Assembly: GCA_030265395.1 (NCBI GenBank)
Contig: JARFYF010000104.1
Span: forward strand, 65,903,608-65,967,607
Length of the DNA: 64,000 nt
From: Rhina ancylostomus
Lineage: Eukaryota
Direction: 5' to 3'
The notes under the pieces: generated by a model
The model's input: only the letters and a program-made list of their open reading frames with translations
Databases searched by the model: none
Told to the model about the DNA's origin: nothing
Made by a program: the position numbers and the translations under genes
In this document: piece after piece, positions 1-62,829 of the stretch
How the letters are laid out: each line of letters begins with the position of its first letter
How positions within the stretch are numbered: the stretch's first letter is position 1

Positions 1-359
1 CACCCCAGTCGTTCATTTGACTCTTGGACTTCAAACAAGTGTCTCGTGTCTTTATTCAGTGTAGCTAGCCGCTACAATATCTAGTATATTACACTCTCAA
101 TTTGGCATCTGATCGCCATGCAGCCACCATCTTGGGAAGGGTAGGCAATGTTATCAAATATTGAAACTATTCAGAGTAGGCAGATCACAATACCAATACT
201 GGTTAGATTGGCAGCATTGATAACAATACAGTTCATGGAAGATCAAATATTCAGAAGCAGAAAGCTCCCTCCCACTATTTAAAGGGATCATTAAAACCTT
301 GCAGGGTGGTTGTTGATTACTGCATGCTTTCAGTCACCCTGAGCTTCTAGACTTCTCTG

Positions 360-720
360 GAACCTTTTTCTCAAAAATTATACATCATTGATAAAATTTG
401 CAGCTAGATAGCATAGCACATTCAAAAGTCAGTATTCATAGTACTAGGCAAAGCATTCCAGTTATGTACAAGATTCACATTATGTGGATACCACAAGCAC
501 AAAAGGCCAAGAGGTTCTGACCCCTTAATGTCCGGTGGTGCTAGGGTCTTAAAACATGGTCCTTCCCCACAGTGCCATTTCGGTATTTATACCAAGCTTT
601 GGTCAGTTGCTCTGTACATAGCTGCACTTTGGAATGTACCAGTCACAACATTCGGTTGTGGACAGTTCCTGCCCTGGAAGTCCAGAAAGCTTTGGCAGAA
701 CAAAGGGCAACTTTTAGAAA
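360..720 (-). mobile_element. Tx1/L1-clade LINE 3' end relic
   Basis: Minus-strand translation across frameshifts gives KVALCSAK...LVHSKVQ, resembling the C-terminus of elasmobranch Tx1-like ORF2 (KDALWSARN...LAHSKVQDY) as I recall it; not aligned. Confidence 0.45.
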
Positions 721-731
721 TGAAAATAAAA

Positions 732-1090
732 TTGCAGATGCCAGAAATCTGAAATAACAATAGAAAATTCTGGAAACAATCAGTAGGTCAGGCAGCATCT
801 GTGGAAAGAGAAACAGTTAATGCTTCAAGTCAAAGACCTCAAATCAGAACATTCTGGAAGAATATAAGATGGCATTCAAGAGGAGGTTTGACTTGATGAC
901 ATGAGATTTCTGAGTCAATATTGAGGACTTCTAGGACTATTCCCCCCTGCCTGTATACCATTGTGGGTTAGGATGTACCCAGGAATTGTACAAGAGAACT
1001 GAAACATTAACTCTTCTTTACCGTCTCCATTGATGCAGCCTTAGCTGCTGAGTATCTCCAGCATTTTCTGTTTTATATTTTAGATTTTTA
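732..1090. repeat. Inverted pair of Penelope-type terminal repeat units with degenerate hammerhead motifs
   Basis: 732-852 (tgcagatg...aggtcaggcagcatctgtgga...atcagaac) and a reverse-complement-like copy at about 1000-1090 (gaaacattaac...gctgagtatctccagcattttctg). Confidence 0.65.
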
Positions 1091-1521
1091 ACATCTTGAT
1101 TGTGATGAAGGTGTCTGCAAGCTGTCGGATATGATTGTGTAATTCTATGGAACAGCTCTCCAATTTAGACACCAGTGGCCAGGTGTTGGTTAGAAGTCTC
1201 TGCAGGTTAACTGCTAACTTAACTGCTGCCCCACCATTGCCCCTTTCAAGATCCTTGATGTTTTCTGGGGTCACCAGTTTTACACTCAGATTCCATATCG
1301 TCCAGCAGCCTTCTAGTCTTCCTGTAGGTGACAGTCAGCAAACGGGATGCAGGGGCCTGAGAAGATGTTGCTGGAACTGGATGCAGGAAGTCCATCTGAG
1401 TTCAGCCTGACCCATCTGGTTTTGACCAGGTACGTTGCTGTGATGCTGTATCTGCAGGGTTGCTGATGTTACACTGCTTGGCCTCTTTTACTGTTTCAGT
1501 CAAGAAGCTGGATGTCAGTAA

Positions 1522-1742
1522 CAAAATAACTGCAGATACTGGAAGTCAAAAATAAAAACAAAAAATGCTGGAAACATTCAGAAGGTCAAGCAGCAACTGT
1601 GGGAAAAGAAATAATTAATGATTCACATCATAGACCCTTCATCAGAACAGTTTTGACAAAGGGTGCAGGACTTGAATTATTATATTCTCTTTCCACACAA
1701 GCTGTCTAACCTGCTGAGCTTTTCCAAAATTTTCTGTTTTAA
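1522..1742. repeat. Fold-back pair of Penelope-type repeat units
   Basis: The unit at 1522-1649 is followed directly by its diverged reverse complement at 1650-1742; the minus strand reads ttCTGATGAagggtc near 1634-1648. Confidence 0.7.
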
Positions 1743-4700
1743 TATATATGAGACTGGACATGGTGTCCAGTTTGCTGTCGACTCCGTTGGATAATCTACA
1801 TTTGATATTACTATCCAGACACGCTTGGTGGAAGGAGAACAGAAAACCCAGAGTGATGAGGTGACCAGAGTTGGTTCCATTTTATTTTACAGTTTCCATT
1901 GCTCACCTGTCAATGTACAATTGAATAAGTGAGAGAGGCTGAGGAAAAATTGCCGCAACCCCTCCCAATCAACTCAGAAGAACGTCACTTACACAGGAAA
2001 CCAGACTTACAAAGTTTGGAAACTATTTATAATGATGCTGAAAAACTCCATCAATCACACGGGAGTCATAAGAAACCTGAGCTTGAATTGGCTTAAGAGA
2101 GTCTATCAAATTTGAAACAGCCTGTTTCTTCAAATGATAAGCAGACAGCAAACCTGATCTATTCAGTCAGCCTGTTGCACTTACGTGCAACAAACTGAAT
2201 GGCTTAACACTAGTTCCTAGAAGCAAGGAACATTAACTCAGCTCTGGGCTTATTCAATAACAAGCACTGTTTCCTCAATCTTAGCTCTTTTCAGCTTTTT
2301 TTTCCATCATTCCAAACTAAATAATTAGCCTTTTAAGAAAACGTTTCTGCAGCTTGGAAACTAAATGGGGAAAAAAGACTGCAGAGTTCCTCTTGTTGAA
2401 TTAGGATTCAGTAGCAATGACTTTTACGTCTTCATCTTTTAAAAAAATTGACATTTCACGGAGAGATGATCATTAAGAGATTTGTCATTACTATAAATTC
2501 TATAACTGATATTTGCATGCCACTATCCTCATAGATTTTGAATGAAAACTAAAATATATTCATGGCACGTATAAGAAAAACGTATTGGCTTTCTCACCAC
2601 AACCAAAATTCTTCAGGTGATGAAGGGTTTCCAATTGCATGTTGAACAACCAAATAATTTTAGTCAACTTTTCAGTCAGCTGAGGTTTTTCATTTTTGGT
2701 TCTAGTGCACGATTAAAACCCCCAGTTGGAACTTTGACTGCATTCCAGCATTCAACAGAATCAGAATGTGTTATGAATAAACTCAGCTAAGGTGGCTCAG
2801 GATTGAAGAAGAATGAAGAACAGATCAGGAGATAGTGGTTTGTGGAGAGAGGGAGACTAGGGAACGGGCTATCCATCAGGGAAAAGAATTCAAGAGACTG
2901 GACATCCAAGAGTGAGTGAGTGTCAGGTCTAGTNNNNNNNNNNGCCAGGAATACTGGGCTTCACACAAGGGGAAAGATGGTTGAAGGGCTGGGGTATAAG
3001 TAGGACATGGATGATGACAAACATTTCCTGGAGAGCTAGGAATAACTCCACAGTCAGCACCGCCCCAGTGTTGGCTGAAACTTGAATTTCTGACTGCAGA
3101 TGATGGCACAGTTATTAGAGGATTTCTCACAAGTGAAAGAACAGCACCATATGGCACAGCTGCTGGGGTACATTAGGCAATCACTGCTTTGTCTTATACT
3201 GATGTGTTATGGTGGAAGCAGTCTGCTGAGCCCACCTCTGACAAAACCTCTTCTGTGGAATTTCAATTAGCAACCCAAAGGGTAGAGCGATTCCCCAAGT
3301 TAGGGAGAAGGGATTTAGGGCTGTTTCTAGGGTGTGGGGAACTTTCCAGAAAAGTAAATGCAGAAATAAAACAAAATCTGCTGGATTAAAAAAAACAATG
3401 AAAGCAAGTGTGGTGCAGCAAAAATTCTGTAACCATTAAAAAAAACATTTAATTTGCAATAACAAAGTTCTGGCACAAGTTAGAAGTTCATTCAAACCTG
3501 TGCTGACTTACATGCAGAAAATGTGGGTTTGTTGTGATACTGTTCTCCCGGAGCAAGAATAAGACTTGCATATGCTGCTGTATCTTCTTGATCCTTAAGA
3601 TGGCCTGGTTGGGAACACACAGTGTATTTTGGCGATAAAACTCTGAATATGGCTTTCTACCCTCCTCTATCACCTCAGTGCCACCTTAACCACACATGCC
3701 ATGTGCACCAGAAATCTTCATACCTGAAAGCAGTATGGAGTTCAACTGGAATTTTATTGAGAGTCCATCTTATCCTTGCCCTCTTTGTCTCACAGAACGA
3801 AAGACCTCTGAAGCAGTAAGAGGTGACTGGTGTACTGCTTGTTGGGAATTTACTCATTGAGGATCCTGATATGGAAAACAAGAAGGGATGAGATTTTTAA
3901 TGGAATGTGGAAAAAAATTGGACCAGAAATTCTGTCACATAGTGCAATGTCTTTATATTGGATGTGATAGTCCTTCTCTGAAAAAATTTTGTTAACTGTG
4001 ATTGTCAACTTTTGGCATGCATGGTGTGATATGGGAAACTGTAAGACAGTCTCCCTTGCATATGAGGTGCTTATGCATGGAGGTCACTTGATACATGTGG
4101 CAGTGACATGAATCGAAATCATGAAAAGCACATACCTCAACATAGGATCAAGTCTTTGTTGGTTGCTGAGAGTCTACCCCAGTGTTACTAAAAGGTATTT
4201 ATTTCCCACTTCTTGGTGGGGAACCCCAATATTAAAAGGTTCTGCTCAGCTCTAACAGATCAGCAGTGTGCTGCCAGCCAGAGGCCAGAGAAGATGCATA
4301 ATGGCCATTCTTAAAACCCATGCTGCTTTCTGGGATCATTTGTCTTTAAGCAGCTCCACCGGAGCAGCAGATAGTCCAGAAATCGTAGCTCTACAGCTCA
4401 CAACAGGTTGCACTTTGTGCTTTGCTTTCCCTTGCATGAAGCTGGCATAGGTCACCTGTGCAATGCCTGTTTAATGCATGTTTTTTCCTGCAGATGAAAT
4501 TTCTGTGTTCTGGTGTTTTTGTTAAAAAGTTTATGCATTTTCCATGTGGATTTCAATCACAAGTAAACATAAATAATGATCCTTAAACTTCAGTTAAGCT
4601 TGAGATCTGGCAATATATTAAAATATACTTAAAGTAAGAATTCAGTACTACACTTTTAAGATCAATTAAAGGTATTTAAAATGGAAAATGCATTGGCCAA

Positions 4701-22625: not shown

Positions 22626-25600
22626 ACTCACTATTTTACCAGTTAACAGGAATATCATTATTGCAGGAGAATTGTTCAGAGCTGGATCTTCCCAAAGTTA
22701 ATCAGCCAGTCCATTATGAATAGAGATCGAGCTTCCTCGCATAACGCATCAATAATGCAGGTGCATTCTACAAGATTAGTGATCAGGCCAAAATTACTAT
22801 GTACCAACTTAAAACTATGGATATAGACTTTATGAAGATCTGAAATGAATGCAAAGTGAAACAGAATGAAACTTCTCGTCACAAAGAGTCTTGCTTCATT
22901 TGTTTCTGCTGTCAGATTGGATGTTGATTCCTATTGTATTTATACTGCAAGCCAGGTTTATTGAGTCTATGGATATATTGATGTACTTTGAATATTATGA
23001 GTATACTTCTGAATATCATGGACTTGTTACATAATTTTTAAATACACCTTTGTGACATGCAAGATATCTCACTACATGCAGAGCAATTAATTTCACGCTG
23101 TCATTACAGTTTTCCATTAATGCATTTTAAGATAAGAAATATGAATACCAGGGCATTTTGTTATCCTCATCAGCCCTACAGACAGCTATTATATAGGGGG
23201 AAAGAATTTTCACTACATCACTTTCTTATCTCTATTTACAGCAAAGGTTGAACTGATACACACAGATTTTAAACACAAGATTATTTAACTCATCAATCAT
23301 AATATCCTGATGTAAAAGATTTTCATTTCTTTTATTAACTGCTTCCAATTTTGTTTCATCATGTCAAATTTTTGATCCCAGTTTATCTCATATATAGATT
23401 AAACACCTATTTTCATGGATTCTAAAATGTTCTCTCACATGCCATTCAGTGAATCTGTTGCCATTCAACTTTTCAGAGGGAGGTTGTCTTGAGCTGCGTC
23501 TGATGCAAGGAATTCCTCTGCATAAAAGACGCACTGCTGTTCATTTGTAATATACCCTCTNNNNNNNNNNNNNNNNNNNNNNNNNNNNNNNNNNNNNNNN
23601 NNNNNNNNNNNNNNNNNNNNNNNNNNNNNNNNNNNNNNNNNNNNNNNNNNNNNNNNNNNNNNNNNNNNNNNNNNNNNNNNNNNNNNNNNNNNNNNNNNNN
23701 NNNNNNNNNNNNNNNNNNNNNNNNNNNNNNNNNNNNNNNNNNNNNNNNNNNNNNNNNNNNNNNNNNNNNNNNNNNNNNNNNNNNNNNNNNNNNNNNNNNN
23801 NNNNNNNNNNNNNNNNNNNNNNNNNNNNNNNNNNNNNNNNNNNNNNNNNNNNNNNNNNNNNNNNNNNNNNNNNNNNNNNNNNNNNNNNNNNNNNNNNNNN
23901 NNNNNNNNNNNNNNNNNNNNNNNNNNNNNNNNNNNNNNNNNNNNNNNNNNNNNNNNNNNNNNNNNNNNNNNNNNNNNNNNNNNNNNNNNNNNNNNNNNNN
24001 NNNNNNNNNNNNNNNNNNNNNNNNNNNNNNNNNNNNNNNNNNNNNNNNNNNNNNNNNNNNNNNNNNNNNNNNNNNNNNNNNNNNNNNNNNNNNNNNNNNN
24101 NNNNNNNNNNNNNNNNNNNNNNNNNNNNNNNNNNNNNNNNNNNNNNNNNNNNNNNNNNNNNNNNNNNNNNNNNNNNNNNNNNNNNNNNNNNNNNNNNNNN
24201 NNNNNNNNNNNNNNNNNNNNNNNNNNNNNNNNNNNNNNNNNNNNNNNNNNNNNNNNNNNNNNNNNNNNNNNNNNNNNNNNNNNNNNNNNCCAAAAATCTT
24301 CATGCCACAAGGAATGACAATATTTCATTTCTCACTTCAATGTGTGGGGCTCCTGAACAAAATGACAATATGGAACACCATAAAGAAGTTGAAATATGCC
24401 ATGTTAGGGAACTCATATCAAAGCATTGATAACCAATTGTTAGGAAATCTGCTCCGTTTTAACATCCCAGGTCAAGCCCGATGAATGTCATCCATTTTAG
24501 CACATTACTAGGATGCTCATCACAACAATTCACATCTGTTAAATAAATGAGATGTACAGCTTGAGCCAGGAGTATGAAATTTCTTTAAAGGTACTTCTTG
24601 TGTATCACTAGTACAGAAAGAAAATTCTTACACCTTTGACTCATTGAACTTGCTCTTTCATTTTGATACTCATGGCAATTTCTGGTCTAATTCACCTTTT
24701 TAATAACTGTTAATTTAAAATAATTACTTATTTGGCAATTATGTGTGACTAGTGCACTACATAACAAGTGCAGAACATCTGTGTTCTCCTGAACATTTTA
24801 ACCTTTCAGATGGTATTTTTTTGCCTTCAAGGTTGTTATTAATGACTTATGTACCCTTCTTAAGTCATTTTGTTCACTTGTACTTCTTTTCAACTTATTT
24901 GCAATTGTCAATCTAAATTACTTTGATAAATGCAGTTAATTTATATAGCAGTGACAAGAAGGTGTATGTTAATAGTATTGATTGGATTTACATAGTAGTA
25001 GCCTTTCATTTTAATATTAGGGGAGGTGATTTCTATAGATGAATTCAAAATGAAAAGCTATTTTTATCCTAATAACTTTGGCTGATATTTGGAATGCTGA
25101 AATAGGGAATTTCAAACCAATTTGGCTGTCACCTAATTTTAATTAGTTTTCTGCCTCTTGTGCAGTGTAAAATCTGTGTATTCATGCGCTATCCATTCAT
25201 TATGACCATAATAACACACAGCATGACTAATCTGTCCATCAACAGGAAATTAGCCACATTAACTTTACATACCAGTATTCACTTCGATTTTCATACTTTA
25301 TTAGATATGGTGGAGGACTTGAATACTCACAATAATTGCATGAACACATATGCTCCAACCCCAATTAACTCATCAGTCGATACCATGAGTTATTTTAGCT
25401 TCATTTTCTGGCAGTTTTTTTTCCTGAGTGCTAATGGAGGGCAGATGCTCTTGAAGGTTTACCTCATGCATGGAATGATAGAGTTTAGATCTGTGGTGTG
25501 TGACCCATATTGCTAATTATTGTTAATACTGAAAATACCATCCTCCTGAAGTTTAAGCAGCATCCTGTCTTTTGAACTACAATTAATCTCACATTACTTG

Positions 25601-28044
25601 GCAAGAGTTTTTGTTTTCTCTTTGGCATTAATGGATTCTGTTGGAAGGTACTGATAGTGATGTCCACATGGTCACTTCGCCAGTAAATATTTGGTGTCCA
25701 GGTACTTCCTAAAAAACTGCCACTTGGTAAATTTAGCAGAAAAATATTGACACTGGTTAAGCTACATAAAGACATTCCACACTAAGTTTGTGAGAGAGGA
25801 CACACGGAGAGAGTTTCAACAGATGAAACTTCACCCACATCAGTAGTAGGGACCCTGAGCACATTATCATTTTTGAAGGCATGTTGCACTACTGGAAGAA
25901 TCTTCCTCTCATTGAGCCCAAGTGATCCTACAGCTGTTCTCGAAGAAGAACCAGGGAAAGTTAATAAGCTTACATTAAGTGCCAGCTAGATTGAGATTCC
26001 CATGTAATGGGCACAAATGAGAAGATCCCCAAATTTCCTGACAGCTGTTTGCCAGTGTTTCACAGATTATTAGACTCATTATGGAGAAAGTAAAGGAGTT
26101 TTCCTTCTGCAGCTCCATAAATTTATCAGAACTACAGCAAAAAACCTAGCTGGAGAACCACCAAACAAATTCCCACTAATTAGGTTTACTTTCATAAGAA
26201 GAGTAGATTATTCCTTGTGGCATGAAGATTTTTGANNNNNNNNNNNNNNNNNNNNNNNNNNNNNNNNNNNNNNNNNNNNNNNNNNNNNNNNNNNNNNNNN
26301 NNNNNNNNNNNNNNNNNNNNNNNNNNNNNNNNNNNATTGATGTTTAAGGGAGACACAGCTGCAACTGCAATATGTGGGCTGGAAAGGGAAAGATTGAAGG
26401 AGAAGATCAGAGATGGCCCAGTATGGGAGCATGTGCATTGGGAGGAGCAGGCAGAGTAACAATCTCCTTACTGAACAATCATCTAACAAATGTGTATACC
26501 TGCATTCATGGATATGAACATATGTTCACTCCACAAGGCCAAAGGTGGTTGTGTGCACCCTTCCAATTTAAATTCCCATGCAATTCCTGGCCAGATTTGT
26601 GATTGGGATGATGAGAAGAGTGCTGTTTCCAGCCTGTCATCCAAACTCATTGTCTGTGTTCTCTGCCCAGCCAAACTTATCCTCTCTGGGGCAGAGGGTG
26701 GACCTCACTGGTTCTTTGTACCCTCAAAGTCAGTGGCAAGATCTCAGAGGCAATTGGGCCTCAGCTAGCGTCACACACGAGCCCTCCCTTCAAACACCCC
26801 AACTTCGCCTTGTGACAAAGCTGTCCTAGATTTTAACCATCTTTAAATCTTTCTGATATTCAGGGTTGTGCAAATTATTAGAATTGAAATAAATAATTTC
26901 AAAATATTTTCTAAATAATTAAGAGAATAAAAAATAAAATGCATACAAAAGCTCATAAATAATTTAAAAAATAAACCAAAATTTTATGTTTTCAACAATT
27001 GATTTACCTCCTCCTTTTCTGCCTATGGGATTTCCCATTCTGTGCTAGATATGACCTGCTGTGGTGTAGCAGAAGCAATTCTCCAAATAATTCTGAGAAA
27101 TCCCAACACAACAATGTCCTGCCAATGGATTCCATGTGGAGTGCAGTGAGAGTGACAGATGAAGCACCATCTGTCACTCAGTAATTCTAAGACTTTCACA
27201 TTTGACCGTGCATGTGGGGATGTCCAAGACTGACTGAAGCTTCATCAGGTGAAGCGGATAATTTCAGGCGGAACCACCAAGTCCAGTTAAGCATGATTTT
27301 TCTGATTGCCTTATTCAGGAATATATGGAATGAATTTTGCTTACAGCAGCATGCATGGAAATGTTTCAAATTTCATGGAGCATTTTAGAAAATGCCGATT
27401 CAGGCGAATTATAATTACTGTAAAATAAACTGTTGGTTGTGTCAGGAAGGTGGTAGTGTCAGTATTTTGAACAATTGAGCTTGAAGAGATTTTTTATCTG
27501 GAGCTCTTTTGTGATTTTGTGGATATTTGGGAACTAAATTGGGCTATGTAATTCTGTGGTTACATAAGCAATGAAAATATAATCATTTGACGTGCATGTT
27601 CTTATGATGGGAAACACACAGAATTTTCTTGTATGGACATGTGAATGGCTTGTGGCTGCTGGTAACATGCTATAGAGGAAGATTATAAGATCAATCAATG
27701 TGCATTGCTGATTTTATACTGCAATTCCAATATGGATCTACACTCTCAAGCCAGCATCATCCATCTTAAACTTGGATATCTGAACAACAGTAGTAAATGT
27801 AATGACAAGCACTCTCTGTCACCCCAAGCACAATTTAAAGCAATCACAATTATTTCTCCTGGCTGCTGGTGCAATGATTTTAGAAGTTTCCAGTATGGTT
27901 AATGTTTGAATACTCTAGAGGGATTGGTCTTGAACTTCATTTTAGCTCATGTAAATCTTGTGCTGAAATACTATCTTCCAGAGATGAGCAAGCTGGCAAC
28001 TGAACAGGAAAAGAGACCTCACAGGGCAAGATAAGCTGCTAGGA

Positions 28045-30921: not shown

Positions 30922-31352
30922 TAAGATAAGATAAGATGTACATCGAAACACACAGTGAAATACATCTTTTGCGTAGAGTGTTCTGGAGGCAGTCCGCAAG
31001 TGCCGCCATGCTTCCAGTGGCAACATAGCATGCCGACAACTTCCTAACACGTAAGTCTTTGGAATGTGGGAGGAAACCGGAGCACCCGGAGGAAACCCAC
31101 ACAGACATGGGGAGAATGTACAAACTCCTTANNNNNNNNNNNNNNNNNNNNNNNNNNNNNNNNNNNNNNNNNNNNNNNNNNNNNNNNNNNNNNNNNNNNN
31201 NNNNNNNNNNNNNNNNNNNNNNNNNNNNNNNACCCGGAGGAAACCCACACAGACATGGGGAGAATGTACAAACTCCTTACAGACAGTGGCTGGAATTGAA
31301 CCTGGGTCTTTGGGGCTGTAATAGTGTTACGCTAACTGCTACACTACCATAC
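30922..31352 (-). mobile_element. HE1/V-SINE-like SINE (gap with duplicated flanks inside)
   Basis: Same family as 12563-12860, with a (TAAGA)n tail; 31084-31131 is repeated at 31232-31279. Confidence 0.85.
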
Positions 31353-38228: not shown

Positions 38229-41049
38229 NNNNNNNNNNNNNNNNNNNNNNNNNNNNNNNNNNNNNNNNNNNNNNNNNNNNNNNNNNNNNNNNNNNNNNNN
38301 NNNNNNNNNNNNNNNNNNNNNNNNNNNNNNNNNNNNNNNNNNNNNNNNNNNNNNNNNNNNNNNNNNNNNNNNNNNNNNNNNNNNNNNNNNNNNNNNNNNN
38401 NNNNNNNNNNNNNNNNNNNNNNNNNNNNNNNNNNNNNNNNNNNNNNNNNNNNNNNNNNNNNNNNNNNNNNNNNNNNNNNNNNNNNNNNNNNNNNNNNNNN
38501 NNNNNNNNNNNNNNNNNNNNNNNNNNNNNNNNNNNNNNNNNNNNNNNNNNNNNNNNNNNNNNNNNNNNNNNNNNNNNNNNNNNNNNNNNNNNNNNNNNNN
38601 NNNNNNNNNNNNNNNNNNNNNNNNNNNNNNNNNNNNNNNNNNNNNNNNNNNNNNNNNNNNNNNNNNNNNNNNNNNNNNNNNNNNNNNNNNNNNNNNNNNN
38701 NNNNNNNNNNNNNNNNNNNNNNNNNNNNNNNNNNNNTCTGAATATCAAAGAGTTGGTATCTGTACTGAACTTTAGTGCCGTGATACTAGGAACTGTGAAG
38801 GCCATGTTTCAGCATTTCTTTCAGAGTGTAAAATACACTCACTCTGTTGGACTCTTTTTTTTAAAGACTAATTTCCTGCTTTATTGAGAGGCCACAAGTT
38901 GCCCTTTGTTCTAAATATCATGGATTTTCTTGCACTAATATTTTACTGCTCTAAAAAAATTGAGCAATCTAGCTTCCAGGCAAATGAGTTTATTAAAAAG
39001 ATTTAAACAAGTAAAAAATAGAGCATGATGAGAATAGGCTACAGGTTGCAATAAAGCCTATAATGTTCTGTGAGCGTGAATTATATTTTGTTCTTAAAGA
39101 TATACAATACTGAAGACTTGAGAGACATTTGTGCTTATTGCTTGCTACCATTCACATCATAGTGCTGTTGCTGGCTCTCACACCGCTTGAAGCTCTTTCT
39201 GGAGAGAACAGTATGACAGCTGTGTCATGATATCTTTCACATGTGTGAAAAACCAGGAAGGCACAAATTCTGCAGAAACAAATTTGAATGAATTCCTTTA
39301 GAGAAGTTTTGGGAATGCCCAGTGAGGTCTGGTTCTTAATGGTTTATATTCAGTCTGTTCTGGAAAGCATCTCACGATAAGAGCTATCAAGAAATATTCA
39401 ACTGATGTTCTTGTTTTCATCTCAATACAGTTAATTACGACATTCCAGAGGTGATATCATCACCAACATTTAGAATAAGAGAATGCAATATATTTATAAA
39501 TTGCTAATGATAGTGAGGTTAAAATAAGTTTTTGTAAATATTTCCATACGCCCTTAGGCCTCCTACTCTTGTATTATGGTGGCTGATAAACTTAATCCTG
39601 GCAGATAATTTCTTATTGTGTACAAGATGAGCAGAGAAAATTTTCAAAGTTAATTCAGATGTTAACCATTAGTGGTAGTTTGATGTTATGGTCAAAACCA
39701 ACAGCTTTCAGCAGTTATATGACGCGTGTCATTGGCTGAAGAGTCTGCCTTAAATCAGATGATTGTAAGCTCAAGATCTAAATAAAAAATTAGAATCTAT
39801 GACACAAAAGGAGGCCATTTAGCCCATCCAGTCTTTGTTGGTCACACGTTAAGTTGACCATCAGTCCAGAATTGAAGGTACACTACATTGTTGGAAATGC
39901 CATTCTGTAATATTATACGTTAAACTGAGCAGGAAGTAAAGGAATATAAAGGTAGAAGCCCTGATAAAAGAGATGCAGTGTTGGAAGTCCATGGAGTTTA
40001 AACAGGGAAGTAGTAAAAATTTAAAATGTAAAAAATATTTTAAAGAACTAATCCAGGGGCAGAATTATAGGCCTGTCAGGCAGGAATAGTAATGTGACTG
40101 TAAGCTGGGAGAATATGGTGCATGTAACGTTAAGGCAAACCAATGGAGAGATTTGAATTTGAGGAATGCGTTTTTGAAGTCAGTTTAATGCAGGGAGCCA
40201 ATGAAGTTGGAAAAGAACAGGATGATGGGCATGTGTCACTGTGTGAGAAGATCCAAGCTACAATATTCCAGACTAATTTAAGCTGATGACTGGAGTTGAG
40301 TATGAAGCTAAAATAGGATAAAATTTAATTCCCTGAATATGAAAGTCCCATATGGCATTCAATAATTTTACATTTGAGTGCATGCACTTTAGGTCCAAAT
40401 CTTACTCACTGTTTCTCTTTCGCACCTCTCTGTTCCATACATTTGAGGCGGATGAAATACTTCAAGCTTGGCTTCTGTGCAACAGTGTCTACAGTCTGGA
40501 GACATGACTAATGACTCTCTTGGTGTGTAATGGCAACGCTGCAAAGGATGGCTGAGACTACAAGCCAAAATGTCCTCCTTTTATACAAAAAAGTGTGAAT
40601 GATTCTGTTCCTTTGAAGAGTTTAATGGCTGTTAATCAAAATGTCATCTGAGTAAATTTTCCTCCAGGCAACAAAATCCAATTTCATTACTGGGTACTTA
40701 GGAAAACCATTTAATCACAAAGCATGGACTCTAAAACATCCTACATACTTAGTAAAATGCCAAAGAACCAGTTATCTGCTAAATGTATATAATGCTGTAT
40801 AGCTGAGCTGATTAGCTATAAGGTGCATGACTATTACGAGTATAGAAATGGAAAAAAAAACATTAACTTACTCACAGAGAAAGCATTACTTGGATTTTAA
40901 TACTGACTGCAAAATCAACCAATCCACAAGGTAACCTTAAATGGCCTGTTCACCCATTGATTAGATTCAGTTGTTACTTGATAGTTGCACTGCTTCTTAA
41001 AGTGATGCTTGTATTCATAGAATATCTCAGTATACTCTGCAGTCTTCAA

Positions 41050-41245
41050 GCCAATTAAGTACCTTTGGTCTGTAGGAAATGCAGCAACCAATTTGTACAC
41101 AGCATACTCCCACAAGCACTAATGAAATAGGGAACCAGATCATTTGTTTTACATTTTGGTAGCGGGATAAATGTTGGCCAGAGTTCCAATGAGAACTTCT
41201 TTGATCTTCTGGTCAGTGTTGTAGAATCCTCATGGATAATGTTGG
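41050..41245 (-). mobile_element. Deu-domain SINE relic (SacSINE1/AmnSINE1-like)
   Basis: gtaggaaatgcagcaaccaatttgtacacagcatactcccacaa...gggataaatgttggccag resembles the antisense Deu core as I recall it. Confidence 0.55.
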
Positions 41246-41389
41246 TAACATTTACTTTAGTAGTTTTGAATAACATTCTTTTGCTTGCTCTGTATCTGAC
41301 ATTAACTAATTTATTTTAAATGGATAAATGCAGCTGTTAAAATACCAAGTAAAGGAATGTGAACTGAATGTACTAAGATGGGATGAGAA

Positions 41390-41830
41390 AATCCAGCAAT
41401 AAGGATAGATTAGAGAAGCTGGGACTGTTCTGTTTGGAGGAGAAATGGCTAAGGGGGTATTTGATAGAAGTACAGAAAGTGATGATGGGTCTGGACAGAG
41501 TAGATAGTGGAAGGTTCTTCTCATTGATGGAGGGGTCAAGGATTAAAAGTCACTGGTATGAAAATAAAGGGGAAAAGGATTACTAGTGACATAATGACAA
41601 AGATTTTTATGCAGGGTGTTTGGAATCTGCAATGCACTGTCCCTGGATGTGGTGGAGGCAGGTTCCATTCTAGCTTTCAGGAGAGATTTAGATAAATATA
41701 TGGTGAAGAAGTATTTGTAAGACTATGGAGAAAAGACCAAGGTGGTGGAACTAGAGTGTTACTCTGGGTGATAATTGACACAGAACTGATGGGACAATTG
41801 TCGTCCTTCTGTGCTATAACTATTCCATGT
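41390..41830 (+). mobile_element. CR1 3' fragment
   Basis: DRLEKLGLFCLEEKWLRGYLIEVQKVMMGLDRVD; 3'UTR ending ccttctgtgctataactattccatg. Confidence 0.85.
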
Positions 41831-41869
41831 GCCGTGAACTGCTAGTATCAACGACACTTATTTATCAGG

Positions 41870-42393
41870 TGTTATGAGAAAGGTTCTTTTGGGATCTTAA
41901 AGGTAAAAGGTATCTGGACACACAGTCTTTGTACTTCAAAAGGAGGATTTTATTCACAAAGACTGACACGGGAGCAGAATGTGAAGGAACAGATGCACAC
42001 TCGCATTAGGATAATCGCGAAACGCGGGGAGCGTCGCAACAGGGGTGAAGGACACACACGCTCAAACATACACACACACGCACACAAGCGCGCGCGCGCA
42101 CGCACGCAACGAACTGGTATAAGTAATCACAGAACAAACAAAATACATTTTCTGGATGCCCCCCCCCTCCGAAACGGGACAAATAACAACTCTATGCTAC
42201 TGCAAATCGACTCAGGACGCTCCAAGACCCCTGTGGAAGTGCACCTCTCACCTGTGGTTTCGACCCCAGCAGCAATCGGAAAAGACGGCGAGCTGCTCAC
42301 GTGTATCATATTTTATAGGGTTGTAGCGGGGTGGAGCCTGCTCAGGTGAGACAAGCCAATGATTCAGGTTCAAGAACAAAGGTGGGTTATGGG
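41870..42393 (-). repeat. ERV 3' LTR, distal part (partial U3, R, U5), minus orientation
   Basis: Minus strand has TATAAAA (42311-42317), AATAAA (41949-41954) and ends ...cataaCA; 42176-42393 is a direct repeat of 45424-45633 (roughly 85-90% by eye). Confidence 0.88.
42052..42108. repeat. Alternating purine-pyrimidine (CA)n/(CG)n tract within the LTR
   Basis: acacacacgc...cacacacacgcacacaagcgcgcgcgcgcacgcacgca. Confidence 0.9.
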
Positions 42394-43850
42394 TGGTACA
42401 TCGCGGACTGGGCCGAATCCGGTCCAGAAGGAGTCAGACGCCTCCACTAACAGGTTATGTCCTATCCCCAGTCTCAGGTCCCACCCCGGACATACCAGAG
42501 ATCAAGACCTTTCCCCTATGCTGGGGCCAACCGTTCGACTCCCTCAACCCTGAACAGAAGCTGCACGCCTGGTTCACGGACGGCTCCAGCCGCTGGAAAA
42601 ACAGGAAGCAACATTGGAAAGCTGCGGCACTTCATCCCGCCACGCAGAAAAAATAACAAAAGAGGGAGCGGGAGGATCGAGTCACTTGACTGAGCTCGCG
42701 ACGGTAGCACTCACTTTACGGGACACCACCGGGCCAGTCCACATCTATACCGACTCTTGAGCAGTGGCCAAGGGTATGGCGGTGTGGATGGCACGGTGGC
42801 ACGAGACGGGGTGGGAAATTCACGGGCGACCCCTCTGGGGAGAGGAACATACTGGTGCTACATCTGGGACCAAGTTGCCCAGAGACAGATATCAGTCCAC
42901 CACATGGATGCTCATACCCACAAGAATACTCAGGAGGCCATATATAATGCCGTTATGGACCAGGCTTCCCAGATATGCTACACCACTGTCACCCTGGAGG
43001 AACCCGCCCTCAGCGCCCTCGCCGCATAGGCACACTGTAAGACCGGTCACCTCGGGGCTGAAGGTACACGGGGCTGAGAAGAGCAGTTTGGGGTTGCCCT
43101 TACGGTCGATCAGTGTAAAACAACTGTCACAAATTGCCCCACCTGCCAGCAGGTAAAACCACGAGACTGGCCAGCAGGGCCACCGGGTCATATTCCCAGG
43201 TGGCACGGGAGCGTGTCCCGTATGGCAAATAGACTATATCGGACTTCTCCCACGCCACAATAAAAAACAGTACGCTCTTATGATGGTGGATACATACTCG
43301 GGTATCCTTGTGGCAGTGCCGTGTGAGAGGGCCGATCAGAACAGTACCATCAAAGGATTGCAGCACCTCTCCTCCATCTATGAAGACCCATGGGAGGTGC
43401 AATCCAACCAAGGCTCACATTTCACGGAGGCTAAGGTACAAAACTCGGAGGTGCAGGCGGGGATCTCGTGGCTGTTCCATATCCCCTACCATCCCCAGGC
43501 ATCCGGCCTGATAGAACGAAACAACAGCCTGCTGAAAGAAACCATACGCACGGTGACGCCCTCCCGCAAATTGCAGTGGTGGTTGGGTGTGCTGCAGCAG
43601 GCCGTCGGTCAGCTCAACACATGGCCCACTGGCCAAGGGGGGTTCCCCATTATCCTGCCATCCCCACTGGCCGCCACCCAACCTGCGAGATCCCGAACCC
43701 CATGAGACTGAGGACTCCGGGAGATTCTGGGTCCGACAGCAACGGGGTCCCCCTCAGAAGGGGGAAATCGTCGCGCGGGGCCCCAGGAACGCTCGTTGGG
43801 TTGTGATCCCAGGTCAAACTAACATCTCCTGCCTTCATTGACAAAACCTG
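42394..43850 (+). pseudogene. pol: Retroviral pol remnant: tether end, RNase H, integrase
   Basis: WYIADWAESGPEGVRRLH; WGQPFDSL...AWFTDGSSR...WKAAALHP; EL; HIYTDS*AVAKG; HMDAH; zinc finger HCKTGH...CPTC; WQIDYIG; VDTYSG; QSNQGSHFT; HIPYHPQASGLIERNNSLLK. Several stops and frameshifts. Confidence 0.93.
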
Positions 43851-43866
43851 ATCCGCCAAGAATGAG

Positions 43867-43899
43867 TTTCTCCCTCCCCCCAACCCTACAGGACGATGG
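43867..43899 (+). promoter_or_regulatory. Probable env splice acceptor and start context
   Basis: Polypyrimidine tract tttctccctccccccaacccta, then CAG (43889-43891), then ATG at 43896 in the context acgATGG. Confidence 0.6.
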
Positions 43900-45117
43900 C
43901 GCTACTCCTCCTCCTCGCTGTGATGATCGGCATCAGAGAGTCTACGAACACCTTCCTCCGCGTCGCGTACGAATTCGCCAACACTTCCAATCAGTCAGAC
44001 TGCTGGATCTGCCTCCAAAGCCCAGCACACGCCGGAGAAGCTTTCCCACTTACAGCGATTCCCTTCGATGATCTCCAAATGAACTGCCTACACAGACTTG
44101 TTATGCTTGTCGGGTTCAGTCTATCAGTTTGGTGGGGGGGGGCGGTAATCCCCCACCACTCTCCTATCCATTACAGAATATTTCTTCCAGTGATTCCCGA
44201 TGGGGTGGGTGCTTCGGAAGCTGGAATTTCCCTTCTTACAATTTGAGCTCAACCCGAGTCCCGACCCTCAGAATGACCCCGCAGCCATCCAGTCGGCCGA
44301 GAGAATGTTGGTGCAGACTCCAAAACGACCACACTTCCACTTTTCCAGTCGGCTACAGTGATTGCGAGAGCAACTGGTACCTAGGGGCCACAGTGGCCAC
44401 CGTCAGAGGTGCGGCCAAGCTGGGAGCTCCCTGGACCCTGAATGGCATCCACTGGGTCTGCGGCAATGTGCCTACCCCTGGCTCCCCACGAGCTGGTACG
44501 GTTGCTGCTTCCCAGCGTTTGTAGTGTCCTATATCCACGCACTCGATGACCTCGGGGAGCACGAAGCATACAGCGGCCACCCACACAGAAGATCCATCAC
44601 AGCATTGTAAAGGTTCTGGATGATTTCTTTTCCCATGTATGGCACAGCTCGACTGTCCAGTGAAGTCATAAGGATGACCAGTGCGCTCCAGACCATGGCT
44701 GACGAAACCAAAATGTCACTGCAACGTACCAGGTATGCCCTGACCCAGTCAACAGTGGAGCTGGCTGCCGTCAGGCTGATGGCCCTTCAGAACAGGATGA
44801 CCGTGGACTACTTGCTCGCTGCAGAAGGTGGAACCTGTGCAATGGTTGGGAAGGAGTGCTGCACCTGTATCCCAGATGCATCCAGCAACATCACGAACCT
44901 GGCTGCTCACATTGGGGACTCGGTAACTAAAATTCAAAAGGCAAGAGGCCAGCTCCTCCAGCAAGACACCTCATGGGGAAACATGCCGTTTGGGTCTCTG
45001 GGGGGATGGTGGGCAACTATCGCCCATTGGGCCACCACCCTCATTTTAGTCGTAATAGCGATCTGCATTTTGTGCTGTGCATGCCAACTTATTAGAACCA
45101 CTTCTGCCTTCCACTAA
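43896..45117 (+). pseudogene. env: Retroviral env remnant, gamma-type
   Basis: Signal peptide MALLLLLAVMIG; CWIC; WVCG...AYPWLPTSWYGCC; HRR/SI cleavage-like site; ISD LQNRMTVDYLLAAEGGTC; CX6CC (CAMVGKECC); TM helix TLILVVIAICILCC. Frameshifts in SU and a stop at 44608-44610. Confidence 0.93.
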
Positions 45118-45198
45118 GCACTGCGCACTGACAAGTTTTTTTCTCTTCTGTTAGCTGAGTTGTTGCTATCACCATGATGAGCAATTGGTATAGCTTCT

Positions 45199-45209
45199 GA
45201 GGGGTAGAA
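45199..45209 (+). promoter_or_regulatory. Polypurine tract
   Basis: gaggggtagaa immediately precedes the LTR start TGTAGTATG at 45210. Confidence 0.8.
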
Positions 45210-45323
45210 TGTAGTATGAAAGGCCAGGGGTCAGATGACAGAGACAACACTACTGACCCCCATGTTCAGATGATAGCATTGCCTGACGGGTTGGAAGCTA
45301 TACCACTGTCAATCAAGGGTCCG
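45210..45323 (+). repeat. ERV 3' LTR U3 start, plus orientation, cut by a gap
   Basis: Inverted copy of 45675-45786, about 9 mismatches in 112 bp by eye. Confidence 0.9.
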
Positions 45324-45423
45324 NNNNNNNNNNNNNNNNNNNNNNNNNNNNNNNNNNNNNNNNNNNNNNNNNNNNNNNNNNNNNNNNNNNNNNNNNNNNN
45401 NNNNNNNNNNNNNNNNNNNNNNN

Positions 45424-45786
45424 GGGACAAACAACGGCTCTACACTACTGGGAATCTACTCAGGACGGTCCTAGACCCCTGTGGAAGTGCACCCTCTCAC
45501 CTCTGGTCTCGACCCCAGCAGCAATCAGAAAAGAGGGCAAGCTGCCCACATGTACCATCTTTTATAGGGGTGGAGCCCGCTCAGGTGAGACAACCCAATG
45601 ATTCAGGGTCAAGAACAAAGGTGTGTTAATGGGCCAATCCTCAGGTGTATTCTTTGATGGGTGGGGCGGAGCCAGACCCTTGATTGACAGTGGTATAGCT
45701 TCCGACCTGCTAGGCAGTACTATTATCTGACCATGGGGGTAAGTAGTGTTGTCTCTGTCATCTGACCCCTGGCCTTTCATACTACA
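45424..45786 (-). repeat. ERV 5' LTR (U3 and start of R), minus orientation
   Basis: Minus strand starts TGTAGTATG; GC box ggggcggag at about 45663-45671, CCAAT motifs, TATAAAA at 45560-45566. Confidence 0.9.
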
Positions 45787-46544
45787 TCAGGTAGTAGGAT
45801 ATGTATTACTGATGGAAAATGATTGGAGACTCTCGCAAACCCAATTTGCCTATATGCGTTGCTTACAATCAGCTACCCTCTTCCCTTAGAGAGAGACTGG
45901 AATAATTTTGTGGCTGTGCACTCACAGAAGTGAACCTCACCAGTATGTATCTGGAATGTGGAAAACATATGATTTTCCATGTGTCCATGCCCAAAATTCT
46001 AATAAGTATTGTGCCTATGCAAAGCTCCTTGTCAGGAACAAAACCAAAATGAGTCCTAATATAAATTGGAGATTGCATTCCACATTACTGCCATGTGTGC
46101 CTTTCTTTTGGAAATCAGGCTTAGTTCATATTTGTACTGTTTGTTCTGACCTTGTCATTGTGGCTGGCCTGCAACATGTTCTTGCTGTGTTAATCTAAGA
46201 ACGTTTGGTTTCTTCCAAGTTGTTGTTGATATAGAGATTCCCTATCATATTGTCTGGTCATTTAAAAAAGTATGTATATAAGCAGAAAAAGCACAAGACT
46301 CACTGAATATTTGAAATATATGGTGGGATTACCAAGATCTGTGTCGAAGATAATTGTGGATATGGCAAGCAATTGGTCATTGGTTCCCTAGAGGGGTGAA
46401 ATCAGCTAGATTCCTGTCTTTGCTACATGCAAGATTGAGTTCAGATGTAATCCAGTCCTCTCTAAGTTCAGGAATGAAATTGATGACCTGGGAATGACAC
46501 TGACTGCTCTGGTTTTATGCCAATAAATGATCAAAATAAATGAA

Positions 46545-61080: not shown

Positions 61081-62829
61081 AAGCCGACTGTAATTTAAAA
61101 ACTTTAATGTTGCCTTTGAGATACTGAAACACTCAGACCCTGAGGATGGATAGCATTTATCAGAACTTATTGAGAGAGACTAGGGTGGGGACTGGTGAGA
61201 AACTGATTCTTTGTAAGGCAGTTAATAGGCACTGTGAATGTGTCATTTGAGCTAGAACTTGAACACAGATTAAAAAGGGATGATAGAGGATATATGGCAA
61301 TTACACACCCATTACTTTAACCTTAGCATCTCGGTTATTAAAAATAAGCTTTGGTGTTGTCTACACAACAGAAACCTGGCACTAGGGAGTTAATGTAGTT
61401 TTAGATGCAAAAATTCCTACTTTATCATCAATGTGATTTATGAGAAAATAGCAATCCAAGTAAACTATGTAAACCCCATTTAAATATTTGATAATATTCC
61501 ACTTGAAATGTCTCATAGATGTGTAGAATCATGGTAAAACTTGGGAGTAAGGAACTGATTGAAGGATGTTCAGGGACTATTTTGTTTGTTCTTCATCAAG
61601 AGGCAAACTTCGCGTGGGTTTAACATCTGAACATTTTTATTAACCAACACCAGCCCGCTNNNNNNNNNNNNNNNNNNNNNNNNNNNNNNNNNNNNNNNNN
61701 NNNNNNNNNNNNNNNNNNNNNNNNNNNNNNNNNNNNNNNNNNNNNNNNNNNNNNNNNNNGAACATTTTATTAACCAACACCAGACTAGCTTGCTTTCCTC
61801 TCTTTTTACAGCAACTTCCTGTTCCCCCATGTGAACCCTTGCATTGCCTACTGGGAACTGTAGTTCTTTATCATAACTAAATAATAATACGGGGATGAGG
61901 GACATTATTCTAGGGCTCACTGTTGGCACCCCTTATGTTTCCAACTTGCATAATTAACCCACTTCTAGAATGAAAACGTCTGTTAAATGTGTGCTGTATA
62001 ATTACAACTGGAACACAGAATTCAAAGAAAGGCTCGAAAGCTAGTCTGTGAGCTAAATTTTAATGACCTGTCAGTTGGATGATAAAGTGACAACGAAATT
62101 CAATTCATAGAAGTCTTAGTTGAAGTATTTTGGGGAGAGCAAATTCGGCAAGGCAATGTGTAGCAGGTCTAGGAAGTATAGGGGAACCAAGATCCTGGAT
62201 GTGTATAACAGGTAACAAAACTAATTTTTCCAATTTCACATCCTAGCAAAGTTTTGCGTATCATCTGCAGATACTTAGGGGCTTTTATTTTCTGTTTTGC
62301 CCAACAGTGTAAAGTGGATTGTAGTCGTTTTCCATAAATAGACATATTGTATTTGATTGGATGACAACATATGATCCATTGTGTCTAGAGTGTATAGTCA
62401 GACCAGCTGGAGAACTCCATGTGTACACTGGTTCAGTGCTGGGTTTTACAAACAAGCCACTACTTCTTGATATTTACTATTGATAACTGATATATTTATT
62501 AAGGCTCAACAAAGTGGAAATGTGGATGAAAAACTGAGAGACTGAATTTTGTGCAGGGCAAGGAAAATCTTACAAATGCTACTGAAGGGCAGCACCAGTT
62601 TCAGAAGTAAGGCAACATTTTGAGGCATTAGTAGTCTAATATTGGTAGCAGTTATCCCCAGGTTATAAGCCAATGACTGATTAGCCATGCGCAATAGATC
62701 CTGATGGAGCTGTGATACTGTGAGAGTATACCAACAGTGTTGGTGAGAAAAGTGGTGGCTACCTCCGAGTATATACTGGTAAACATGAGCACAGGAGAGA
62801 ATAAACTGCCAAACTGTGCACCAGAGGAA

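Follow-up and report, generated by a model that had tools for sequence, protein, structure and literature searches.

Within a 64,000-nt window of the Rhina ancylostomus assembly (GCA_030265395.1, contig JARFYF010000104.1, positions 65,903,608–65,967,607 of the forward strand; "the window" denotes this whole stretch), the endogenous retrovirus (ERV) at 41870–45786 carries its pol-env block flipped relative to its own long terminal repeats (LTRs). This layout is confirmed for the assembly, and is probably explained by one post-insertion inversion of a 2.9-kb block, comprising pol, env, the polypurine tract (PPT) and a U3 start, in an old, decayed class III-like ERV. Positions 41001–46500 were compared with the window by blastn, and the element was scanned for Pfam domains with profiles in 10 frames. 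Of 13 public sequencing runs, four were used (X1–X4; organisms A–D), with contigs matched at a likeness of 86. As these runs are assembled contigs, they carry neither strand nor RNA-level information. Contig listings favour the longest or deepest entries (32 of 15,238 pieces, 15 of 111 joints and 40 of 1155 variant rows were listed), and at least 31 letters were required for a contig to bridge a boundary.

The element is one integration, as seen from a 5-bp target-site duplication (TSD) and from a related species in which the site is cleanly empty. It spans 3917 nt, with minus-strand LTR ends (TGT start at 45786, ACA end at 41872–41870), and is flanked by TCAGG on the left (41865–41869) and on the right (45787–45791). 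One X4 contig, from organism D, connects 41863 to 45786 and thereby skips 3922 nt; since the element (3917) and one TSD copy (5) add up to this length, the contig represents the empty orthologous site. Flank contigs from other runs show the opposite pattern, with those of X1 and X2 entering the LTRs by 26 nt on the left and by 29 nt on the right, i.e. below the 31-letter bridging rule, and that of X3 likewise entering the left LTR end; the insertion is likely common to organisms A, B and C. Over both element flanks (896 and 843 nt), run X1 is identical to the window, and the flank distance amounts to 44/1735 (2.5%) for organism B and 103/1558 (6.6%) for organism D.

The LTR boundaries are independently confirmed by many contigs with unlike flanks that stop at 41870 and 45210: in X1 and in X2, ~42 contigs each turn into unlike flanks at the former position, and X2 and X4 contigs carry unlike flanks before the latter. 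Two other origins were rejected. L1 retrocopies may acquire a 5′ inversion as they are made, and an L1-mediated retrocopy of this kind is ruled out by the intact LTR ends on both sides, the 5 bp TSD and the lack of a poly(A) tail. A solo LTR assembled twice is ruled out as well, since the overlapping parts differ at 23/208 sites.

The left LTR, which is the 3′ LTR of the minus-strand provirus (41870–42396), lacks its first ~122 nt and comprises the U3 end, a CAAT box (42360–42356), a TATA box (42317–42311), a long R and an AATAAA signal (41954–41949) before its ACA end, as read from the sequence, the blastn comparison and X1 and X2 contigs. The right, or 5′, LTR (45424–45786, minus strand) retains its TGT start, the whole U3, a TATA box (45566–45560) and the start of R, and its remainder lies in a gap of 100 N (45324–45423). 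Both TATA boxes read TATAAAA on the minus strand, while the AATAAA polyadenylation (polyA) signal is visible only in the left LTR; the copy of the right LTR would fall in the gap. An earlier sequence-only reading had taken both outer LTRs as minus-facing and sharing one TSD, which is confirmed by the TGT/ACA ends, the TATA boxes, TCAGG on both sides and the empty site. On the opposite strand, a flipped U3 start corresponding to LTR positions 1–114 occupies 45210–45323 and ends at the gap (blastn; X2 and X4 contigs).

Only two non-self match pairs were found when 41001–46500 was compared with the window, both of them LTR repeats. One is direct (45424–45633 and 42176–42393; 84.1% identity over 220 columns) and the other inverted (45209–45321 and 45787–45675; 92.0%, 113 nt), in agreement with a left LTR without its U3 start and a U3 start that lies flipped at 45210–45323. 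The second breakpoint is predicted inside the gap. In this window, 100 N denotes no true size, because among its 15 gaps, seven of them 100 N, two of those seven have overlapping flanks (31084–31279, 48 nt, exact; 61629–61783, 25 nt, 96%).

The left LTR (41870–42393) is rich in CpG, with an observed/expected ratio of 0.88 vs. 0.14 in the flanks, due in part to a (CG)n/(CA)n run near 42059–42116; in the shared LTR part, eight CpG are kept in the left LTR and four in the right. From the positions of TATA and AATAAA, a long R (>300 nt) and a U5 of ~60 nt would be expected for this LTR, a spacing similar to that of XtERV-S LTRs.

Between the LTRs, pol, env, PPT and a U3 start all face the plus strand, as had been proposed, on the evidence of two Pfam matches, the PPT at 45199–45209 and the TGT at 45210. 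A decayed 3′ part of pol (42394–43705, plus strand; Pfam and protein alignment) comprises the end of the reverse transcriptase (RT) connection region, RNase H and integrase, interrupted by several stops and frameshifts. The integrase core matches Pfam rve (E 1.7e-10; 43157–43702, plus strand), with spacings of 57 and 35 and Asn rather than an acidic residue at the second catalytic position, and is preceded by a zinc finger of the form HX4HX28CX2C at 43033–43146, read with X at an internal stop. Among longer proteins, the best match of the integrase open reading frame (ORF) was P0001 from Hypanus sabinus (LOC132402424), which is 75% identical across 54% of the query (two matches among 200 candidates). 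Homology to P0001 spans 42382–43498 in two frames, shifting and with stops, and tblastn of P0001 matches the element only from residue 231 onward; what is visible of pol is therefore broken and begins where the RT connection region ends.

The integrase frame ends at 43705 and env begins at 43896, so that the 190 nt between them leave no room for a dUTPase, for which there was no match in 10 of the 10 frames scanned. The decayed, gamma-type env (43896–45117, plus strand) has stops in all three frames, but its motifs are recognizable: CWIC at 44001, an immunosuppressive domain (ISD)-like QNRMTVD at 44788, CX6CC at 44836 and a membrane anchor. Its transmembrane subunit (TM) matches Pfam TLV_coat (E 9e-07; 44611–45114, plus strand), and no standard furin site was found in the three env frames scanned. 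Further downstream follows the PPT (10/11 purines, plus strand), and directly after it the second TGT LTR start.

The visible breakpoint at 42393–42396 is a 4-nt overlap, GTGG, that fits both the LTR U3 (minus) and pol (plus). Similarity to pol begins at 42393, as judged from two paralogous X2 contigs, and similarity to the LTR would extend to 42396 provided that the left LTR belongs to a short-U3 type without the 28-nt U3 segment of the right LTR. Read this way, the flipped U3 accounts for positions 1–114 and the left LTR starts again at about position 123, with 8 nt missing between them; on a long-U3 reading, the left LTR resumes at about position 154. That the left junction lies in contiguous sequence and not at a gap holds true, as it is situated inside a gap-free 6.6-kb contig (nearest gaps 38229–38736 and 45324–45423), and its position is now refined to the 4-nt overlap.

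These features are consistent with an inversion in which one break would have fallen near position 123 of the 3′ LTR and the other in pol, where the RT connection region ends, the ends having presumably been rejoined via the 4-nt inverted microhomology by end-joining or template-switch repair. The gap would then contain the second junction, the missing portion of the 5′ LTR and anything that is left of RT, pro, gag and the primer-binding site (PBS). The flipped U3 and the left LTR are similarly far from the right LTR (10/114 and 23/208 differences, respectively; Fisher p 0.57), and thus as expected of two halves of one LTR.

Several observations, to which the LTR divergence discussed below is to be added, weigh against an inversion. 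The family is present in high copy number, with 3413 X1 contigs matching the stretch and LTR bins at depths of 286–3090 vs. 6.7 in the flank; the 64 kb are broken up by 15 gaps, a sign of a fragmented assembly, and the second breakpoint is concealed in the unsized gap at 45324–45423. A bridge over 42393–42396 occurs in none of the 32 listed pieces, which neither confirms nor refutes the junction, and a strand change in none of the 15 listed joints. One joint listed leads from 42389 to 45657, i.e. from a left-type LTR collinearly into U3, at a depth of 27 in X1 and 6.3 (~single-copy) in X2. It may derive from paralogues forming a small short-U3 subfamily, in which case the two LTRs here would be of different subtypes, or from this locus in an unflipped state, which would mean misassembly. 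Moreover, an X1 contig identical to the window at 43614–43912 has a depth of 12.7, twice that of the flank, reflecting either a second near-identical copy or depth noise.

Such observations might be accounted for by an assembly or library artefact, which we regard as possible though rather unlikely: on the minus strand, the provirus would be collinear, and the left LTR would have been joined to pol via the 4 nt by a chimeric read or by gap filling, which flipped the block. Besides the copy number and the hidden breakpoint, the collinear left-type U3 contigs in X1 and X2 favour this explanation. A further contig of the window may be orientation-ambiguous: the 1.9-kb contig at 24290–26235, lying between two gaps, has a perfect 25-nt inverted duplicate at its ends (24291–24315 and 26210–26234) and no Pfam match in its two ORFs of at least 90 aa, and represents either a second assembly piece of ambiguous orientation or a non-coding element that ends in terminal inverted repeats. 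Inverted joins via 2–21 nt of complementarity are described as the main chimera of strand-displacement amplification (PMC1855051).

On the other side, the junction sits within a contig, and graph assemblers normally build such sequence only on repeated read support. The contig also ends 8 nt before the re-entry point without overlap, unlike the 25–48 nt overlaps at other gaps. At 13 sites picked by hand from the 40 listed of 1155 variant rows, the residual depth left for the window letter in X1 was 4–10 at nine, 0 at two and >20 at two, compared with 6.4–6.7 in the flanks; for the same sites in X2, it was 4–10 at five, 0 at five and >15 at three. In both runs, the residual may include third letters. 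Sites of single-copy depth in X1 were spread over the left LTR, pol, env and the right LTR. With private letters at about single-copy depth in X1 at nine of the 13 sites, the pol-env block resembles a genuine single copy more than an average collapsed from several, and such letters should let an assembler follow the copy. Of the post-insertion inversion put forward by the sequence-only reading, the single insertion (TSD and empty site), the flipped block and the placement of the breakpoints, one each in U3 and pol, are upheld; the part that places the flip in the animal as opposed to the assembly is not, as the contigs neither bridge nor refute the junction.

The LTR divergence bears on another, unlikely scenario, in which two family members share the locus, be it as a plus-strand provirus inside a minus-strand one with a deletion from the host 3′ U3 into the guest pol, or through ectopic conversion or recombination. 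Over all sites, the two LTRs differ at 33/323 positions (10.2%), above the flank yardstick of 6.6% (p 0.009), and they are set apart by a 10-nt indel and probably also a 28-nt indel, which could reflect two subfamilies. The LTR-distinguishing segments are also well covered by family contigs (X1 depth 884 at 42321 and 1749 at 45650). Outside CpG, the LTR–LTR distance is 23/299 (7.7%) vs. 103/1558 (6.6%) for the organism D flanks; with p 0.26 against this ceiling from the empty-site species, it is compatible with the age of a single insertion. Two resident elements would, however, require two events, and would not explain why the end of the flipped U3 comes to within 8 nt of the left LTR break, or why the two halves are equally distant from the right LTR. 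Nested proviruses, raised beforehand as the alternative that would overturn an inversion, find no support at the visible junction, which lies mid-pol and shows neither an LTR end nor a second TSD; the right boundary is inside the gap.

Timing separates a post-insertion inversion from one that occurred during reverse transcription, before integration, for which there is hardly any probability. Autointegration requires a break at an LTR end, and neither break is located at one. The 5′ LTR has a whole U3 and the 3′ LTR a split one, a combination that a rearranged RNA template would not yield: under standard reverse transcription, a genome whose 3′ U3 is split could not serve as the source of a whole 5′ U3, so the flip would be later than integration. 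In favour of a pre-integration event, internal inversions are among the classes scored for defective HIV proviruses (PMC11014653). As described there, the HIV-1 cases resemble this element in that an inverted internal segment makes for a defective provirus; they are somatic and recent, whereas the present element is germline, old and broken once inside an LTR.

If the flip is real, it would leave pol and env without a sense promoter from the element's own LTRs and antisense to the 5′ LTR promoter. The right LTR TATA (45566, minus) would then point into the block, antisense to env and integrase, and the minus strand of the block (41954–45323) contains no AATAAA or ATTAAA before the left LTR signal. 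Thus, the antisense geometry proposed for LTR-driven transcripts holds, on the condition that the flip is real. The longest of the five ATG frames of >50 aa on this strand measures 99 aa. Upstream of the block, however, the gap is expected to hold the right LTR's own polyA signal along with further sequence, and an antisense transcript would first have to read through this signal. We consider it very improbable that the element's own 5′ LTR drives RNA antisense to env and integrase, ending at the 3′ LTR polyA signal and feeding Piwi-interacting RNAs (piRNAs) against tens of internal family copies. Were this true, it would constitute a route to ERV immunity without host promoter or cluster in cartilaginous fish, possibly common to at least two species, and a single inversion, if real and transcribed, would turn the virus's own promoter against its family.

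Instead, the locus is likely an inert relic and the flip a neutral decay event. Its significance is most likely minor: deletion and rearrangement are the usual ways in which old proviruses decay, and the locus would be one such case or an assembly slip. Owing to its unique flanks, empty-site outgroup and defined junction, the locus is easy to test. With respect to host gene context, 42 ORFs of at least 90 aa outside the element gave one sub-cutoff Pfam match; short exons were not sought, and an intronic position is possible. There was no Rfam match, and no tRNA was found.

Antisense ERV insertions are reported to seed piRNAs, e.g. Drosophila Tirant in flamenco or in host 3′ UTRs (PMC13226689), and koala and chicken cases have been reviewed (PMC11599104). 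As described for Tirant, ERV coding sequence would here be antisense in a Pol II transcript; there, piRNAs were measured and the antisense RNA starts at the promoter of a host gene or cluster (PMC13226689), whereas here it would start from the element's own LTR. In a literature search over titles and the beginnings of abstracts, with few subscription journals covered, no ERV inverted against its own LTRs was found as an antisense source, and among the papers listed by a further search none mentioned stingray.

Judged by its visible anatomy, the element appears to be a class III-like ERV with a gamma-type env, similar to ERV-S and XtERV-S, with RT outside the visible sequence. Class III is placed within the clade Huo, present in all major vertebrate groups (PMC6001957). 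[quoted passage not shown] P0001 itself had 11 matches in all, the next being P0003 from Narcine bancroftii, in keeping with a ray as the likely host; a weaker one, from a marsupial, carries a dUTPase domain. Its best match in a PDB search was a murine leukaemia virus (MLV)-type RT, followed by a foamy virus integrase, an outcome that leaves the class undecided. All four organisms examined carry the family in abundance, including organism D, which is without this insertion; no family loci were found in viral contigs or metagenome contigs.

XtERV-S and ERV-S are described as ERVs of class III whose env is of class I (gamma-type) (PMC8278194). In line with that account, the element has a TGT...ACA LTR of ~650–700 nt with TATA in its first half and the polyA signal near its end, a 5-bp TSD, an HX4HX28CX2C finger (HX3HX29 in foamy virus and HX3HX32 in MLV), and a short env with an N-terminal CWIC as the CXXC of the surface subunit and, in TM, a QNR-type ISD and CX6CC (PMC8278194). 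The dUTPase that follows integrase in ERV-L and XtERV-S proper is missing, and there is no room for one, as in ERV-S (PMC8278194). The first spacing of the integrase core is given as 58 in ERV-L and XtERV-S (DX58DX35E) and 56 in MLV (PMC8278194). Unlike XtERV-S and ERV-S, the present element has core spacings of 57 and 35, broken ORFs and an inverted internal block, with RT, gag and PBS outside the visible sequence. The batoid ERV pol P0001 aligns over the whole pol remnant and differs from it in being an open 605-aa frame that includes the RT connection region missing in the element.

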